DNA of 32,000 bases from Candidatus Competibacteraceae bacterium. GTDB taxonomy: Bacteria; Pseudomonadota; Gammaproteobacteria; Competibacterales; JAHEDQ01. The stretch lies in assembly GCA_024641125.1 (NCBI GenBank), contig JAHEDQ010000016.1:1-32000 (forward strand). The letters run 5' to 3'. Positions 1,602 to 31,518 of this stretch are shown piece after piece (the first letter of the stretch is position 1; every line of letters begins with the position of its first letter). Below the pieces are notes generated by a model that ran no database searches, was not told the DNA's origin, and worked only from the letters and a program-made list of their open reading frames with translations. The position numbers were made by a program, and so were the translations under genes.

Positions 1602-2784
<1,183 letters not shown>

Positions 2785-2871
2785 GTGTTTCCCCTCGAAG
2801 TGCTTGCATGTACGCACGGAGGATGTGGCGGGCTGGACTTTATTGCACCACAGCAGCGAGGCGCGCGAAGT

Positions 2872-2898
2872 ATATTAGAGTCCGGTCACGCGGGTCAA
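2872..2898 (-). promoter_or_regulatory. Candidate sigma70 promoter of the atp operon (-35 TTGACC, 15-nt spacer, -10 TAATAT)
   Basis: The minus strand reads TTGACC cgcgtgaccggactc TAATAT, about 80 nt upstream of atpI. Both hexamers are good but the spacer is short. Confidence 0.3.
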
Positions 2899-2940
2899 TT
2901 GCCAGACCCGGTTAGTGATCCAATTGCTGAATTGCGTCAA

Positions 2941-3798
2941 CTACTTGACATGCTCAAGAATGCCGTCAAGTTCGTCCAGGCTTCCATAGTGGATCACAAG
3001 ACGGCCTTTCCCGGCGGCTGTATGCTGAACCTGCACGCGAGCGCCCAGGCGCTCCGAAAGATCGTTCTGAAGATGCCGGATGTTTGGATCCAGGGGTTTC
3101 CTATCCACCCCCGCATGCCGTTCACCCCGCATCAGCTTGCGCACCAGGTCCTCGGTTTCCCGAACCGACAAACCGTGCAGGGAGACGGTTCTTGCCGCCT
3201 CCACCTGCAAATCCGCTTCCAGCGCCAGCAGCGCGCGGGCATGCCCCATCTCGATGCGCCGCTCCCGCACCATCTCCTGCACCGGTTCGGCGAGATCCAA
3301 GAGACGCAGCAGATTACTCACCGCGGCCCGCGATCGCCCGACTGCCTGTGCCGCCTGCTGATGGGTCATGTCGAACTCATCGATCAATCGCTGTAGAGCT
3401 GAAGCTTCCTCGAGCGGGTTGAGATTCTCCCGTTGAATATTCTCGATCAAAGCAATGGCGATGGCCGCCTCATCCGGCACATCACGCACCAACACCGGCA
3501 CGGCTTTCAGGCCGGCCAGCTGGGCAGCGCGCCAGCGCCGCTCTCCTGCGATGATTTCATAACGGTTGTCACCCAATGATCGAACGACAATGGGCTGGAT
3601 GACCCCCTGTGCCGATATGGAGCCGGCCAGGTCCTCAAGGGTCTCCTGACGAATGTCCGACCGGGGTTGGTAGCGCCCGCGCTGCAGCAAATCGACGGAC
3701 AGTTCACTCAACTCACCCGGCGTCGAAGATGCATTATCGGAACCCAGGCCGAGCAAGGCATCCAGACCGCGGCCGAGACCGCCTCGTTTGGCTGTCAC
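2941..3798 (-). CDS. parB: Chromosome partitioning protein ParB (Spo0J)
   Basis: 285 aa with GLGRGLDALL, the ParB box IIAGERRWRAA, and an HTH segment (MTHQQAAQAVGRSRAAVSNLLRLL). It lies downstream of parA. Confidence 0.95.
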   Translation of the reverse strand: MTAKRGGLGRGLDALLGLGSDNASSTPGELSELSVDLLQRGRYQPRSDIRQETLEDLAGSISAQGVIQPIVVRSLGDNRYEIIAGERRWRAAQLAGLKAVPVLVRDVPDEAAIAIALIENIQRENLNPLEEASALQRLIDEFDMTHQQAAQAVGRSRAAVSNLLRLLDLAEPVQEMVRERRIEMGHARALLALEADLQVEAARTVSLHGLSVRETEDLVRKLMRGERHAGVDRKPLDPNIRHLQNDLSERLGARVQVQHTAAGKGRLVIHYGSLDELDGILEHVK

Positions 3799-3816
3799 TT
3801 CGTCATCCCCCGTCGG

Positions 3817-4608
3817 TTAGGCCGCCGCACCGGTTTCCCCACCGCCCCGGCGCAGAATCTCACGCGCCAGATCGCGGTAAGCCCGCGCTCCGCGCGAACC
3901 ACGATCATACAAAGCAATGGGCAGTCCGTAGCTGGGCGCTTCAGCCAAGCGCACATTGCGGGGCACAACGGTCTTGTACACCCGCTCACCAAAATGGTGC
4001 GTCAGCTGACTCGATACCTCGTTCGCCAAGCGATTACGGGAATCGAACATGGTTCGCAGTAGACCTTCGATGCGCAAATCAGGATTCAACGTGCGCCGAA
4101 CCCGCTCAACCGTATCCAACAGCGCTGACAGACCCTCCAAAGCGTAGTACTCGCACTGGATGGGAATGATCAGACGATTGGCCGCGACCAAAGCGTTCAG
4201 CGTCAGCATGTTCAGCGAGGGCGGACAGTCGATAAAGATGTGTTGGTAGTCGCCGGCCAGTGGGAACAGCAGTGTCTTCAGGCGCCTGGGGCCTTCCGGG
4301 TGATCGAGCAAAAACACTTCGGCCGCAGTCAGATCGCCGTTGGCGGGCAGCACGGTTAGATTCGAGTCGGCCCGATGGACCAGCGAGCGTCCGATCTCGC
4401 GCTCGCCCTTCAACACCTCGTAGGTGCCCGCGACCAGTTCGTGTTTGTCCACGCCACAGCCCATGGTGGCGTTGCCCTGTGGGTCCATATCCACCAGCAA
4501 TACCCGCTCCCCCACGGCAGCCATTGCCGCCGCAAGGTTCACTGCAGTGGTGGTTTTGCCGACGCCCCCTTTCTGGTTTGCGACAGCGATGATCCGTGCT
4601 CTACCCAT
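3817..4608 (-). CDS. parA: Chromosome partitioning ATPase ParA (Soj)
   Basis: Deviant Walker A motif IIAVANQKGGVGKTT. The tracked ORF begins with a TTG at 4623, but the ATG at 4608 (MGRARIIAVANQKGG) is the more typical N-terminus. Confidence 0.93.
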   Translation of the reverse strand: MGRARIIAVANQKGGVGKTTTAVNLAAAMAAVGERVLLVDMDPQGNATMGCGVDKHELVAGTYEVLKGEREIGRSLVHRADSNLTVLPANGDLTAAEVFLLDHPEGPRRLKTLLFPLAGDYQHIFIDCPPSLNMLTLNALVAANRLIIPIQCEYYALEGLSALLDTVERVRRTLNPDLRIEGLLRTMFDSRNRLANEVSSQLTHHFGERVYKTVVPRNVRLAEAPSYGLPIALYDRGSRGARAYRDLAREILRRGGGETGAAA

Positions 4609-4619
4609 GTTCCCAGCGT

Positions 4620-5252
4620 TCAATTCGGAGAATCACTAACGATGATCAGTAAGTGGCGCACACCCTCGATGCCTGGCACATTCAGACGCTCGGTGGTCTC
4701 GACCCGCCATCCGTTTCCCGGCGTGTCTGGCCGCTCAGAATGCACCCGCCCCTTCATGGCGAGCAACCGGCCATTCGGCGCAACAAGATGACCCGCATTG
4801 TCCACGAAATCTCGGGTGGATGAAAAGGCGCGGGAGACGGCGGTTGTGAACAGATCCCGAGGCCTATATGCCTCAACCCGTTGGCGCACGACCGTAACCT
4901 GGGGTAGTGCCAGCTCGATTCTGGCCTGCTCCAGAAAACGGGTTCGTTTTGCACTTGCATCGATCAGTACAAACGCCCGGTCTGGGTTGAGAATCGCCAG
5001 CGGAATTCCCGGCAAGCCGGCACCGCTGCCCACATCGGCGATTCGATGCCCGTCCAATGCGTGGGAAGCCGAAGCGCTGTCCAGGATGTGGCGCGAAACC
5101 ATGTCGCGGGCGGCACGCACCGCCGTGAGATTGTAGACTTTATTCCATCGCGCCAGAAGCAGTATATAGGCATCCAGGCGCGAAATCTGGTCCACCGATG
5201 CCCTGATCCCGAGGGCGCCGAGCCCGTCGGCGATCTGAGTGTCGAAACCCAT
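4620..5252 (-). CDS. rsmG: 16S rRNA (guanine527-N7)-methyltransferase RsmG (GidB)
   Basis: 210 aa with LLARWNKVYNLTAV and the SAM-binding segment DVGSGAGLPGIPLAI. It is in the canonical position upstream of parA. Confidence 0.93.
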   Translation of the reverse strand: MGFDTQIADGLGALGIRASVDQISRLDAYILLLARWNKVYNLTAVRAARDMVSRHILDSASASHALDGHRIADVGSGAGLPGIPLAILNPDRAFVLIDASAKRTRFLEQARIELALPQVTVVRQRVEAYRPRDLFTTAVSRAFSSTRDFVDNAGHLVAPNGRLLAMKGRVHSERPDTPGNGWRVETTERLNVPGIEGVRHLLIIVSDSPN

Positions 5253-6270: not shown

Positions 6271-7254
6271 ATGGGCGAGCAAGTCGGTAGGATTCTGTTC
6301 ATATTTCCAGGCCAGGGCGCCCAGTATCGGGGCATGGGCGAGGACTTATTCAATTGCTCCCCGCGGGCCCGCGCCACCTACGAGCAGGCCTGTGACGTTC
6401 TGGGTTTTGATCTCAAGGCACTGAGTTTCGACGATCCGGACAATGAGCTGATCCTGACCCGCAACACCCAGCCGGCCCTGCTGACCCATCACATCGCTTG
6501 CCTGGAGGCCTGGCGCGAACTCACCGGCGATGCGGTAACTCCGGACCTATGTGCGGGCCACAGTCTCGGCGAGTACTCCGCCCTGGTGGCGGCCGGGGCC
6601 CTGGATTTCGCCGATGCGCTGCGTCTGGTCAGACGACGCGGCGAACTGATGGGCAAGTACGGCGAAGGTGAGATGACCGCCTTCACCCTGGATCTCGAGA
6701 CCCTCCGTCCTATCGCGGATAAACACTTCTGCGGTATAGCCGGATGCAACCTGCCCGACCAAACCGTGGTCGGCGGCCGCCCGGAGGATCTGGACGCCAT
6801 GGCGGACGAGGTGCTGGCGCAGTTTCCGAGGAAACGCGCGGTTCGGCTGAAAACCGAGGGCGCGTTCCATACCTACTACATGGTCACCGCCGCCCAAAGC
6901 TTCCGGGTGGAATTGGACGCTGTGGATATAAACGTGCCCATGATCCAGGTGCTGTCAAATTACACCGGCGCATATCACGACCCGGACCCGGGCGTGATCA
7001 AGGCACGCCTTTTTTTCCAACTCTTTCATCCGGTGCTGTGGATGCAGAACATGCAAACCGCAGTGAAGGACGGCACCCGCGCTGTGATCGAGTTCGGTGG
7101 CGGGATCGGCACCGGCGAAGCCCCGGCGGACAAACGAGCGAACCTGGAAGGCATCATCAAGAAAGCGTTCCGCCGCGCCGAACACCCCCCACGGTATCAT
7201 GCCGTCATAAATACGCAGACGTTGGCGGCCTGTGCCGAAGAATTCGGCGGCTGA
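6271..7254 (+). CDS. FabD-like acyltransferase (malonyl-CoA:ACP transacylase superfamily), orphan copy outside any fab cluster
   Basis: Contains FIFPGQGAQ, the active-site GHSLGEYSAL, an Arg in RRRGELM and GAFHT. The ATG at 6271 is preceded by GAGGAA. The tracked ORF start at 6154 is a TTG with an Arg/Ala-rich non-homologous extension. Confidence 0.85.
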   Translation: MGEQVGRILFIFPGQGAQYRGMGEDLFNCSPRARATYEQACDVLGFDLKALSFDDPDNELILTRNTQPALLTHHIACLEAWRELTGDAVTPDLCAGHSLGEYSALVAAGALDFADALRLVRRRGELMGKYGEGEMTAFTLDLETLRPIADKHFCGIAGCNLPDQTVVGGRPEDLDAMADEVLAQFPRKRAVRLKTEGAFHTYYMVTAAQSFRVELDAVDINVPMIQVLSNYTGAYHDPDPGVIKARLFFQLFHPVLWMQNMQTAVKDGTRAVIEFGGGIGTGEAPADKRANLEGIIKKAFRRAEHPPRYHAVINTQTLAACAEEFGG

Positions 7255-25450: not shown

Positions 25451-27223
<1,773 letters not shown>

Positions 27224-27508
27224 GGGCCCTCCTAATGAGCACGAAAAAATCGAAATCTGATCGCCGGAACAGCGGCTCGCGTCTTCGTCTGTTGATGGCG
27301 CCGACCGGAGCCTTGCGGACGTGGGGTGCGGACGTTGGCCCTGTGCGCGAGCGGACGGCCGGGGCGGTCTCGCTCGCTGGCCAACGGCGCGCATCTCGAC
27401 TTGGACTCAGCGGCCCCGCCGGGGGCCGTTAAAGTACACTTAAACAAGGTTCAAGTCCACCTCATCGGTGGTTGTCACAGGCCTATGTTCCCGCGCCAAA
27501 CCAAGGCA

Positions 27509-27575
27509 CTGCGGGCGTCTCCCCGCAGCTGCAATTGCAACCACGACGCAGCGCGGCTGCCGCGCCGCGTCGTGG
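27509..27575. repeat. Cluster of GC-rich palindromes/hairpins: a 7-bp stem at 27509-27528, TGCAATTGCA at 27530-27539, and a 35-nt near-perfect palindrome at 27541-27575
   Basis: Read directly from the sequence: CTGCGGG-cgtctc-CCCGCAG, and CCACGACGCaGCGCGGCtGCCGCGCcGCGTCGTGG (16 pairing positions, 1 mismatch). Confidence 0.5.
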
Positions 27576-27763
27576 CTTGGATACACCCCGCCCTAGCTCC
27601 CTCTCATGGCACGGGGCCAAGCCGATTCCAGTTCGGACTCAAGAAAATGCATCGATACCGGCGGTGCGGCGTCTGCGGCAGGCGACAGACAAGCCCGAAC
27701 CATGCGCGCCTTCAATCGCGATCAAACCGGTAAGCTACTGATAGCCTGAAACAATAAGGGTGC

Positions 27764-27779
27764 TGGCACACGGGTTGAC
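27764..27779 (+). promoter_or_regulatory. Candidate sigma54 (-24/-12) promoter: TGGCAC-acggg-TTGA
   Basis: The -24 TGGCAC is perfect and the GG-N10 spacing is correct. The -12 element reads TTGA rather than TTGC. It points towards the terminator at 27946-27977 and the glrK-like operon, which encodes a sigma54 activator. Confidence 0.35.
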
Positions 27780-27789
27780 TTAATAAGCC

Positions 27790-27977
27790 GGCGTGGCATG
27801 GGGCGTGAACACCCCCTTCATCGGGAACGAGCATCCGAACGGACCTCTGGGCTGGCCAATCGGGTGGCGAGCACAGGGTCGTGACAGGGTCGGTGGACAC
27901 AACACTACGCTGAGTATCCGCATCCTTGGCCCGCAATGGGCTCGACCGGTACCGTCGACCGACGCGTACCGGTTTTT
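27790..27977 (+). ncRNA. Candidate sigma54-dependent small RNA (about 185-190 nt), in a GlmY/GlmZ-like genomic position
   Basis: Bounded by the candidate sigma54 promoter and a strong intrinsic terminator. No credible ORF or SD lies within it. The 5' end is approximate and inferred from the promoter. Confidence 0.4.
27946..27977 (+). terminator. Rho-independent terminator with no annotated plus-strand gene upstream
   Basis: CCGGTACCGTC-GACC-GACG(C)GTACCGG followed by TTTTT. The stem is 11 bp with one bulge. The U-tract is present only on the plus strand. The terminator ends 37 nt before the first possible glrK start. Confidence 0.75.
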
Positions 27978-28013
27978 CTGTGGTGATGATCGATCCAACT
28001 CAGGCCGGATGCT

Positions 28014-29558
28014 ATGCTTCAGTATGACGCTCAAGCGGGAGATCCCGCCAAGATTCCGAGCCGCGCGTATTCGCCGCACAGCGGGCGGCCCGTGCCGTCG
28101 AACCTGGCCCTCGCCGTCGTGAATCGTTACCGCCCGACCTCGGTACTGCAGCTGCTATTGCTCGGCTTCATGGTTGTTGCCCTGCCGCTGGGGATTGGGC
28201 TGGTAGCGGCATTCGTGTCGGTGGATCTGCTCAGCCGGCAGAGCGAGGCGGCCATTCTCGACGCCGCCGGCGGTGTGTTGTCGGGGCAGGCCCTTGGCAC
28301 TGACATCGTACAGATGGAGCGGCACGCGCGCCGCTATCACATTCTGGGCGATCGCAAATTCTTCGAATTGGCCATGGACCGACGCCAGAGTTTCGATCAG
28401 GCCATCGCAACGCTTACGGCACTGGACCTGACCCCGACTTTGCGGGAGCAGCTGGATCAACTGATCGAACTGGAATCATCCGTGTTCGCTACCCTGACCC
28501 TCGAACAATATGACGCGGTTGCGGTACAGGAGGCGGTTGCTCTGTTTGAGCCCATGTCACAATTGGCAAGCGAAGTTCAGGGTGAAATGCGGCGGGTCAT
28601 CACCCGGGATACCCAGGCGCTTCGCAGCGAGGCGACACGCGTCAAGCGAACCCTGGCCTGGCTGGCAACCGGATTGATCCTGGCCGCCTTCGGTCTCTCC
28701 GCCTGGCTGGCCATGTTTCTGGCGCGGCCGATCAACCGGATGGAAAACGCCATCAGGCGGCTCGGGGAGGGCGATCTGGATCGGCCAATCGCGGTTCGCG
28801 GGACCCGCGACCTGGAAGAAGTTGGGGATCGTCTGAACTGGCTCAGGCTGAGACTCCAGGACGCAGAACAGCAGCAAACGCGATTCCTCCAGCACGTATC
28901 CCACGAATTGAAAACCCCGCTGACGGCGATTCGCGAGGGTACTGAACTACTGCGGGACCAGGTCCCTGGACCATTGAATCCGGGGCAGCTCGAGGTCGCG
29001 GGCATTCTGCGAGAGAACAGCCTTCGTCTACAGAGACAGATAGAGGATCTATTGTCCTACAGCCAGGTAAGGCGGCCAGGCGAAATTGCGGCTCATGAAG
29101 CAGCGGATCTGGCATCTATCGTCAGGACTGTGATCAGCGACCAGACGCTGGCAATGCAATCCCGCGGGATCGTCGTGCAGACCGATCTGCAATCGATCCG
29201 GACCATAGGGGATCCGGAAAAACTGCGCGTAGTGGTGGATAATCTGCTATCCAACGCGGTGAAACATTCGCCGCAGGCCGGTGTAATTCGTTTGCTGCTT
29301 CGGTCGCGGGAGTCCATGGTCGTACTGGATGTAATCGATCAGGGACCGGGCATCGATCCGACCGAGCGGGAACAGATTTTTGAGGCATTTGTCCAGGGTC
29401 GGGCGCCTTCCACCGGTCATGTCAGCGGCACCGGCCTGGGTTTGGCGATCACCCGTGAGTATGTACAAAGCTACGGTGGAACCGTCGAGGTGATGGACTC
29501 GGAACAAGGTGCCCATCTGAGGGTAAGCCTGCCGATTCGGAGTAAGCTTGGACCATGA
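28014..29558 (+). CDS. glrK: Sensor histidine kinase, GlrK/QseE-like (2 TM segments, HAMP, HisKA, HATPase)
   Basis: Contains IRRLGEG...FLQHVSHELKTPLTAIREGTELLRDQVPGPLNPGQ, which closely resembles my recollection of E. coli GlrK. The N, G1 and G2 boxes are present. The start is uncertain: the GTG at 28119 would give a GlrK-like short N-terminus (VNRYRPTSVLQLLLLGF). Confidence 0.8.
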   Translation: MLQYDAQAGDPAKIPSRAYSPHSGRPVPSNLALAVVNRYRPTSVLQLLLLGFMVVALPLGIGLVAAFVSVDLLSRQSEAAILDAAGGVLSGQALGTDIVQMERHARRYHILGDRKFFELAMDRRQSFDQAIATLTALDLTPTLREQLDQLIELESSVFATLTLEQYDAVAVQEAVALFEPMSQLASEVQGEMRRVITRDTQALRSEATRVKRTLAWLATGLILAAFGLSAWLAMFLARPINRMENAIRRLGEGDLDRPIAVRGTRDLEEVGDRLNWLRLRLQDAEQQQTRFLQHVSHELKTPLTAIREGTELLRDQVPGPLNPGQLEVAGILRENSLRLQRQIEDLLSYSQVRRPGEIAAHEAADLASIVRTVISDQTLAMQSRGIVVQTDLQSIRTIGDPEKLRVVVDNLLSNAVKHSPQAGVIRLLLRSRESMVVLDVIDQGPGIDPTEREQIFEAFVQGRAPSTGHVSGTGLGLAITREYVQSYGGTVEVMDSEQGAHLRVSLPIRSKLGP

Positions 29559-30145
29559 GCAGCCAACGTCTTTGCAGACTGGCGGTGATACTGATAGCCG
29601 GATGGCTGAGCGCCTGTTCCTGGATAGGCCTGTCCGGCGACTCCACCGGCAATCCCACCCGATCTGCCGCCACTGCCGGCGGATCTCAGGTGCCGGATGT
29701 GGAGTCCCTGCTGATCGAGATCGCCGCGCTGAATGCTGGCTCGCGGGCGCAACTGGGCAGCGCGCTGGTCGAAACCGAACAGCGCTACCAGGACTGGGGC
29801 GATGTCGGCAGCCGGATCAAACTGGCCTGGCTGCTGAGTCGGCCCAATACGGGTTCTCAAGACAATCGACGGGCGGTTTTGCTGCTGCGTGAGTATCTGG
29901 ACCTGGACGGCACCGATCCGGGCTATCGTGCTTTGGCGGACCTGTTGCAAACATCCATCCTGGAGCGCGACGAGGAGCGCTACGCCGCCGGCGACCTGGA
30001 AACGGACCTGACGGAAGCGCGTGCACAGAATCAGGTGTTGGAAGAGCAGATTGCGACGCTGCAGGAGCTATTGGAGACACTGCAGCAGCAATTTGAGGCG
30101 CTCAAAGACATCGAGACGGACATCAGCGAGCGCCCTGCGCCGTGA
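29555..30145 (+). CDS. qseG: Lipoprotein encoded between kinase and regulator, QseG/YfhG-like by position
   Basis: The ATG overlaps the kinase stop (ATGA). The signal peptide has the lipobox LSAC (Cys21). The C-terminus is coiled-coil-like. The assignment rests on position and lipoprotein character, not on recognised sequence identity. Confidence 0.6.
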   Translation: MSSQRLCRLAVILIAGWLSACSWIGLSGDSTGNPTRSAATAGGSQVPDVESLLIEIAALNAGSRAQLGSALVETEQRYQDWGDVGSRIKLAWLLSRPNTGSQDNRRAVLLLREYLDLDGTDPGYRALADLLQTSILERDEERYAAGDLETDLTEARAQNQVLEEQIATLQELLETLQQQFEALKDIETDISERPAP

Positions 30146-30159
30146 GGAACTGAACCCCG

Positions 30160-31518
<1,359 letters not shown>

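Follow-up and report, generated by a model that had tools for sequence, protein, structure and literature searches.

A predicted terminated leader RNA or small RNA upstream of a glrK-lipoprotein-glrR operon, laid out like GlmY and not homologous to it

The window analysed here is a stretch of 32,000 nucleotides from a Candidatus Competibacteraceae bacterium. Its surroundings are GC-rich (61% GC over the whole window), and it probably lies near the chromosomal origin, as suggested by the clustering of atpB, parB, parA and gidB (rsmG) at 1602-5252. Close to its end stands an operon encoding a sensor kinase, a lipoprotein and a sigma-54 activator, separated by an intergenic region of 790 nt from a divergent icd gene that starts at 27223. 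The genes concerned are the following:

25451-27223, minus strand: icd, isocitrate dehydrogenase with a C-terminal pair of CBS domains, 590 aa
28014-29558, plus strand: GlrK/QseE-like sensor kinase, ATG at 28014
29555-30145, plus strand: QseG-like lipoprotein, 196 aa, with a lipobox (LSAC) and a C-terminal coiled coil
30160-31518, plus strand: GlrR/QseF-like sigma-54 activator, with a GAFTGA motif and a conserved HTH

An earlier note, made from the sequence alone, had read these genes as a kinase, lipoprotein and sigma-54 activator operon of the glrK-qseG-glrR type, and this assignment is correct. Indeed, many relatives of the kinase are annotated as GlrK, and the lipoprotein, in addition to its lipobox, shows a weak similarity to the C-terminus of Leclercia QseG (E=8e-5), a Pfam search with it returning no family. 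The top NCBIfam match of the regulator is GlrR, whose 636 bits fall short of the equivalog cut-off (763 bits) and clearly exceed the 445 bits of NtrC; the regulator shares 58% identity with Leclercia GlrR, and the C-terminal HTH is almost the same in both. The same note had remarked that no plus-strand gene precedes the terminator described below for about 750 nt, and the 790-nt region is indeed bordered upstream by a minus-strand gene. Between icd and the GlrR box described below, a GC-rich hairpin of about 50 nt, palindromic and nearly perfect, occupies 27531-27580 and is partly conserved in the related locus L081; it gave the only Rfam matches obtained, to miRNA families, and these were judged spurious.

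Four close relatives (L081, L090, L091 and L092), which together with the window are referred to as the window group, have kinases 91-92% identical to the one studied here. A metagenome scan added just two close relatives, and a scan of genome contigs gave kinases of at most 42% identity among the matches listed. More distant members of the clade have kinases 51-53% identical, and the icd-CBS gene is the divergent neighbour of glrK in every clade locus, these distant ones included, where the upstream gene was recovered. At the annotated glrK ATG, a TG-N-TATGCT sequence (28010-28018) resembles an extended -10 element; it is also present in L081, L083, L085, L094, L100 and L105, i.e., nearly clade-wide, the surrounding spacer being unconserved. 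Codons 1-42 of the kinase exhibit a weak third-position bias.

Three elements of a sigma-54 regulatory region are found within the intergenic region:

27670-27687, no strand assigned: GlrR-type upstream activating sequence, CGTCTG-N6-GCGACA, 7 of 8 positions of TGTC-N10-GACA
27731-27743, minus strand: IHF-like site TATCAGTAGCTTA, one mismatch to WATCAANNNNTTR, inside an AT-rich spacer
27764-27779, plus strand: sigma-54-type promoter TGGCAC-N5-TTGAC, canonical at -24 and non-canonical at -12 (TTGA for TTGC)

A sigma-54 promoter is recognised by GG at -24 and GC at -12, 10 nt apart (TGGCAC-N5-TTGCW). The element at 27764 has a perfect -24 hexamer followed by TTGA, without the C at -12, just as had been described. 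TGGCAC-N5-TTGA (27764-27778) has no other exact match in the window, and the pattern with one mismatch was found 5 times for 5.7 expected, so that the motif alone is not evidence. Similarly, the bare CGTC-N10-GACA-type pattern occurs at chance level in the window (2 found, 3 expected). Since box and promoter are each at chance level, the case rests on the comparison of related loci. TGGCAC-N5-TTGA is kept in all four close relatives, and the 7-of-8 GlrR-type site, also reported earlier, precedes the -24 element by exactly 94 nt throughout the window group; box, promoter and spacing are jointly kept, an arrangement that exceeds chance. Corresponding boxes precede the promoter by 91-104 nt in L083, L085, L094 and L105 and by 172 nt in L093. 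The weaker box that had been noted at 27473-27490 is present, but it is not conserved in L081 and was rejected as a functional site.

Elsewhere in the clade, the homologous promoters read TGGC[AC]C-N5-TTG[ATG], with TTCC in L094. The promoters of L081, L083, L085, L090, L093, L100 and L105 all have TTGA, TTGT or TTGG in place of the canonical C at -12, which makes this a clade-wide deviation and not a defect of a single locus. In the window, L090 (one mismatch) and L093 (perfect), the IHF-like site precedes the promoter by 33 nt, and the spacer at 27720-27763 has a GC content of 45%, compared to 61% for the whole window. Judging from their sequences, the GlrR box, the IHF-like site and the sigma-54-type promoter represent the same design as the region upstream of enteric glmY.

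Downstream of this promoter, the following features of a predicted RNA are present:

27791-27977, plus strand: predicted primary transcript, about 187 nt, non-coding; start taken from the enteric offset, end at the U-tract
27791-27823, plus strand: 5' stem-loop (helix 1), RNAalifold consensus, 3 compensatory pairs, 89% of cells paired
27842-27923, plus strand: two tentative predicted internal helices, 27842-27880 and 27881-27923
27909-27931, plus strand: conserved stretch GCUGAGUAUCCGCAUCCUUGGCC, for which RNAduplex predicts pairing with the glrK start region
27928-27942, plus strand: small hairpin GGCCC-GCAAU-GGGCU, forming a family signature with a preceding YUU
27944-27977, plus strand: intrinsic terminator, with stem, T5 run and stem covariation

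The start was extrapolated from three enteric controls, in which the Rfam start of GlmY equals the start of the promoter motif + 27; the same offset applied to the window predicts a start near 27791 and a length of about 187 nt. The transcribed stretch can be considered non-coding, as no ORF in 27791-27977 is conserved among close relatives and frameshifting 1-nt indels occur between them; small ORFs are present, none of them conserved, and in the window the frame opened by an ATG at +146 runs into a stop at 27984. The earlier note had predicted an RNA of about 185-190 nt with several internal hairpins. A predicted length of this order, the non-coding nature and the terminator at the 3' end stand, but internal helices 2 and 3 find no covariation support: they are almost invariant, so that covariation neither supports nor refutes them, only 3 independent sequences of the window-type RNA body being available. 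The single-sequence fold of the whole RNA is not more stable than that of shuffled sequence (z = -1.13). The small hairpin sequence TTGGCCYGCAANNGG was found in clade loci only, where its pairs are kept through G-C/G-U swaps. A second sigma-54 promoter, TGGCCC-N5-GGGCT at 27927-27942, was considered as a driver of glrK and rejected, as its GG/GC is not conserved in L081, L094 and L105 while the hairpin is kept.

The terminator is as had been described, with an 11-bp stem interrupted by one bulge, a GACC loop and a T5 run. In its core, 27946-27956 pairs with 27961-27972, with a bulged C27965 and the T5 at 27973-27977; two more A/G-U pairs extend the stem to 27944-27974 (13 pairs). It ends 36 nt before the kinase ATG. 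With -17.6 kcal/mol, it surpasses in stability every other hairpin adjoining a T5 run on the plus strand of the 32-kb window, the sole comparable T5 hairpin being located after mdh on the minus strand; a generic terminator scan gave no enrichment. As a GC-rich stem-loop followed by a U-tract, 27944-27977 has the makeup of an intrinsic terminator.

When the window is compared with L081 and L090, the conservation profile climbs sharply from the promoter onward. Identity amounts to 91-95% in the 3' half of the RNA (27868-27977) and 73-77% in its 5' half, against 64-70% in the upstream spacer and 59-74% between box and promoter; the third positions of kinase codons reach about 68%. Given its excess over both flanks and third positions, the 3' half of the RNA is, on this comparison, under purifying selection.

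The module of box, promoter, predicted RNA and terminator was also found in 4 further lineages, with kinase identity down to about 50%. L093 combines a box and its perfect IHF site with a TGGCAC-N5-TTGT promoter, an RNA of about 175 nt and a terminator; L094 and L095 have two boxes, a TGGCAC promoter whose -12 element is poor, and an RNA of about 285 nt with a terminator; L105 has boxes, a TGGCCC-N5-TTGA promoter and an RNA that is about 90 nt long and has a weaker U-tract. Within the homologous RNA of L094, positions 1541-1604 contain a 32-nt tandem duplication (GAGTGAATCGGGC[GA]CTGGC...). The common 3' signature consists of a YUU-GGCCYGCAA hairpin and a CCGG...CCGG terminator, and a covariance model of this 3' module (R1) retrieved clade loci only (61-89 bits) and 0 of about 60 other GlrK loci. 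In the terminator stem, 5 pairs are changed on both sides, and its covariation score was reached by 0 of 500 shuffles. The alignment of the intergenic region with a covariation test, a check proposed at the outset, thus gave a conserved module with compensatory changes in helix 1 and in the terminator.

Part of the conserved 3' half is complementary to the beginning of the kinase gene:

28002-28024, plus strand: start region of glrK, with GGAUGC ahead of the AUG at 28014; complement of 27909-27931

The predicted duplex (GCAUCC...GGCC of 27909-27931 with 28002-28024) reaches -23.5 to -25.7 kcal/mol (z about -3.3). Among the 22 start regions of the window scanned as targets of the RNA, that of glrK was the best and alone stood out, icd and all others being at background. 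The glrK AUG is base-paired in the predicted fold of the read-through transcript. This complementarity was found in the window group only and is absent in L093, L094 and L105; it cannot therefore be the conserved function of the family and represents at most a lineage-specific feature. With the 3' arm of the terminator removed, its 5' arm was left unpaired in every family member, and the window leader gave no match to Rfam cis-regulatory families. The lack of an alternative antiterminator pairing argues against a riboswitch-like attenuator, the modelled folds lacking the mutually exclusive terminator and antiterminator of a riboswitch or regulated attenuator.

The explanation that we favour, with moderate conviction, is that a GlrR/sigma-54 promoter yields a terminated sRNA of about 187 nt and, through minority read-through, also autoregulates the operon. 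The GlrR-like regulator would bind the box at 27670-27687, and IHF-mediated bending would lead to activation of the sigma-54 promoter at 27764-27779; we infer this dependence on RpoN and GlrR. Transcription would start near 27791 and stop for the most part at 27944-27977, releasing a structured non-coding RNA, whereas a minority would read through into glrK-lipoprotein-glrR, so that the same promoter would autoregulate the two-component system. The released RNA would act as a small regulatory RNA. Its GCAUCC/CU-rich stretch (27909-27931) may pair with the glrK start region, in cis on the read-through transcript or in trans, and thereby damp kinase synthesis; further targets may exist, possibly among envelope functions. 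The extrapolated 5' end, the TTGA at -12 and a single 7/8 box compared to three in enterics count against this explanation, as do the ordinary stability of the whole-RNA fold, the missing covariation support for helices 2 and 3, the restriction of the start-region complementarity to the window group, and the loss of the RNA body in one subclade.

A purely cis-acting leader is possible, though on the whole doubtful. Here, 27791-28013 would be the long 5' UTR of an autoregulated glrK operon, the terminator and the start pairing would form a constitutive or factor-controlled attenuator, and the short product would be functionless. Three clade loci fit this well: in L083, L085 and L100, the same box and a TGGCCC-N5-TTG[AG] promoter would drive glrK directly, its ATG being only about 90 nt away and no terminator intervening, and the leader of L105 is about 90 nt long with a weak U-tract. 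In a kinase neighbour-joining tree without support values, these RNA-less loci form one subclade, sister to the short-RNA L105 and nested among the long-RNA lineages. This nesting suggests that the common ancestor of the clade probably had the RNA, which afterwards underwent a reduction that spared the promoter; the RNA is dispensable in the subclade that lost its body. An origin of the RNA-less loci by deletion between two TGGC repeats was considered and is weakened by L105, which has the TGGCCC promoter plus a separate hairpin.

As the RNA-less relatives keep box and promoter directly before glrK, the promoter of the RNA probably also serves the glrK operon. No sigma-70-like promoter was found in 27000-28300, nor any other separate promoter for glrK, which makes terminator read-through the likely source of the glrK-glrR mRNA. 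The scenario named in the earlier note as a refutation, namely that the terminator lies within the leader of the kinase operon, is thus at least partly true. The complementarity of the leader to the start region and the paired AUG of the read-through fold also agree with a cis-acting leader, as does the situation in Proteus, where glmY-qseEGF is co-transcribed as one operon (PMC8745638) and by analogy with which a partial coupling is plausible here. The other arrangement is found in E. coli, where glmY transcription ends at a terminator with hardly any read-through and qseEGF is expressed from a promoter of its own (PMC6075780).

On the contrary, about 110 nt conserved at 91-95% are well above the needs of a terminator, no antiterminator alternative was found in any family member, and the hairpin-terminator sequence is kept across lineages with only about 50% kinase identity. 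The predicted output resembles that of 5'-leader sRNAs arising by premature termination, with one promoter giving a short terminated RNA and a read-through mRNA, and with a leader complementary to the start region. It differs from them in that no ligand- or protein-controlled antiterminator is evident, and the sequence conservation of the window RNA suggests a function beyond attenuation. A released small RNA accompanied by minority read-through remains the reading that we prefer.

The earlier note had also recognised a glmY-like arrangement, and the likeness is extensive. As with GlmY (RF00128), the predicted RNA lies immediately 5' of the same three-gene operon and on the same strand, behind what appear to be a sigma-54 promoter, a GlrR/QseF box of the TGTC-N10-GACA type and an IHF-like site; the predicted non-coding transcript falls in the range of about 150-190 nt, and the terminator is near the kinase start as in E. 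coli. Homology was a different matter. Searches with the Rfam models of GlmY and GlmZ (RF00128/RF00083, clan CL00011), as the note had advised, gave no match at gathering thresholds, none up to E=10 on 27200-28100 and none up to E=5 on L090, L093, L094 and L105, whereas GlmY was recovered at 136-143 bits by the same search in three enteric positive controls (L045, L048 and L051). The enteric controls (Leclercia, Xenorhabdus, Serratia) exhibit three TGTC-N10-GACA boxes and a sigma-54 promoter, with GlmY 27 nt after the start of the promoter motif. Unlike GlmY/GlmZ, the window RNA thus has no detectable sequence or structure similarity to that family and bears its own 3' signature (YUUGGCCYGCAA hairpin and CCGG...CCGG terminator). 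Further differences are the single GlrR box, the TTGA in place of a canonical -12, the lack of a detectable overlapping sigma-70 promoter at the window locus, and the host, an uncultured GC-rich gammaproteobacterial lineage.

That the RNA is a genuine homologue of GlmY/GlmZ which has diverged strongly, binds a RapZ homologue and controls glmS is improbable. Such homology would account for the same place upstream of glrK-qseG-glrR, the same promoter logic, a similar length and a stem-loop starting at +1. No RNA partner is known for the RapZ homologues of non-enteric bacteria, which also speaks for this reading; GlmY and GlmZ themselves are described from Enterobacteriaceae only (PMC4152352). 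Besides the silent Rfam models, such a homology is opposed by the contents of the window, in which no glmS, rapZ or second RNA copy was found, and by the locus L096 (see below), where an unrelated RNA candidate in the same position upstream of glrK speaks for recurrent origin rather than descent. A mere chance co-occurrence of motifs, with a stray or only insulating terminator and an inactive promoter-like sequence, is very improbable. In its favour are the chance-level frequency of every single motif in the window, the non-canonical -12 element and the lack of enrichment in the generic terminator scan; against it stands the joint conservation, in at least five lineages, of box, IHF-like site, promoter, spacing, 3' module and terminator, with a profile climbing sharply from the promoter onward. 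On sequence grounds, the locus is thus best described as harbouring a new, predicted terminated leader RNA or sRNA, of GlmY-like layout and non-homologous to GlmY; the favoured explanation of a released small RNA falls within this description.

GlrR-type promoters are not restricted to this clade. Boxes of the form TGTCGC-N6-GCGACA lie 80-125 nt from sigma-54 promoters at enteric glmY and at about 25 beta/gamma loci. At the latter, which are GlrK loci of beta- and gammaproteobacteria, a pair of GlrR boxes with a canonical sigma-54 promoter is located downstream of glrR (L001, L003, L007, L010-L012, L015, L017, L020, L022, L025, L027, L028, L030-L032, L034, L037, L042, L047, L049, L050 and L056). 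The paired boxes are about 66 nt apart and stand just 3' of glrR, at about 6300-7000 of the loci. Where checked, the promoters precede genes with EF-hand, BON (OsmY-like) or MdoG/OpgG domains, several of which have predicted N-terminal signal sequences. Such targets suggest that GlrR-type systems generally control envelope or periplasmic functions, RNA targets being exceptional.

Two further loci provide RNA candidates of their own. In L010, a Burkholderiales MAG, the region 6608-6900 downstream of glrR contains boxes at 6608 and 6673 and a promoter (TGGCACGCCAATTGCA) at 6763, followed by about 130 nt without a convincing ORF and then by a strong terminator; this represents a separate candidate for a GlrR-dependent sRNA, for which no Rfam match was obtained. 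In L096/L097, with a kinase 45% identical and a different synteny, the sequence TGGCACGACCCTTGTA within 2748-2936 precedes a hairpin of 63 nt and a T6 run that stops about 65 nt short of glrK. The predicted RNA of about 160 nt, bounded by a sigma-54-like promoter and a terminator, is unrelated to that of the window. These unrelated candidates in L096 and L010 suggest that RNAs at GlrR loci arose repeatedly.

Other sRNAs are driven by sigma-54 activators encoded next to them, such as Qrr next to luxO in Vibrio and CrcZ next to cbrB in Pseudomonas. Similarly, the sRNA gene predicted here adjoins an NtrC-family activator system that would drive it through a sigma-54 promoter. It differs from Qrr and CrcZ by the regulator family, by the unrelated RNAs and by its position relative to the regulator gene.

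A broader reading, which we regard as speculative and rather unlikely, is that GlrR-controlled sigma-54 leader RNAs are an old and recurrently reinvented device of which GlmY is one instance. The window family would then be a trans-acting non-enteric counterpart, possibly the RNA partner that orphan RapZ-type proteins lack, linking the GlrK/QseG/GlrR envelope sensor to post-transcriptional control, and the clade would preserve stages of the birth or decay of an sRNA, represented by the long terminated RNA, the short leader with a weak terminator, and the bare promoter. Independently of this, the design of the glmY locus appears to occur outside enterics with an unrelated RNA, and at least one further non-homologous version seems to exist in L096. 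If transcription is confirmed, the window RNA and its relatives would constitute an uncurated RNA family and a natural series for the origin of sRNAs from operon leaders, or their collapse into them, and they would provide a handle on the post-transcriptional targets of GlrK/GlrR in environmental Gammaproteobacteria.
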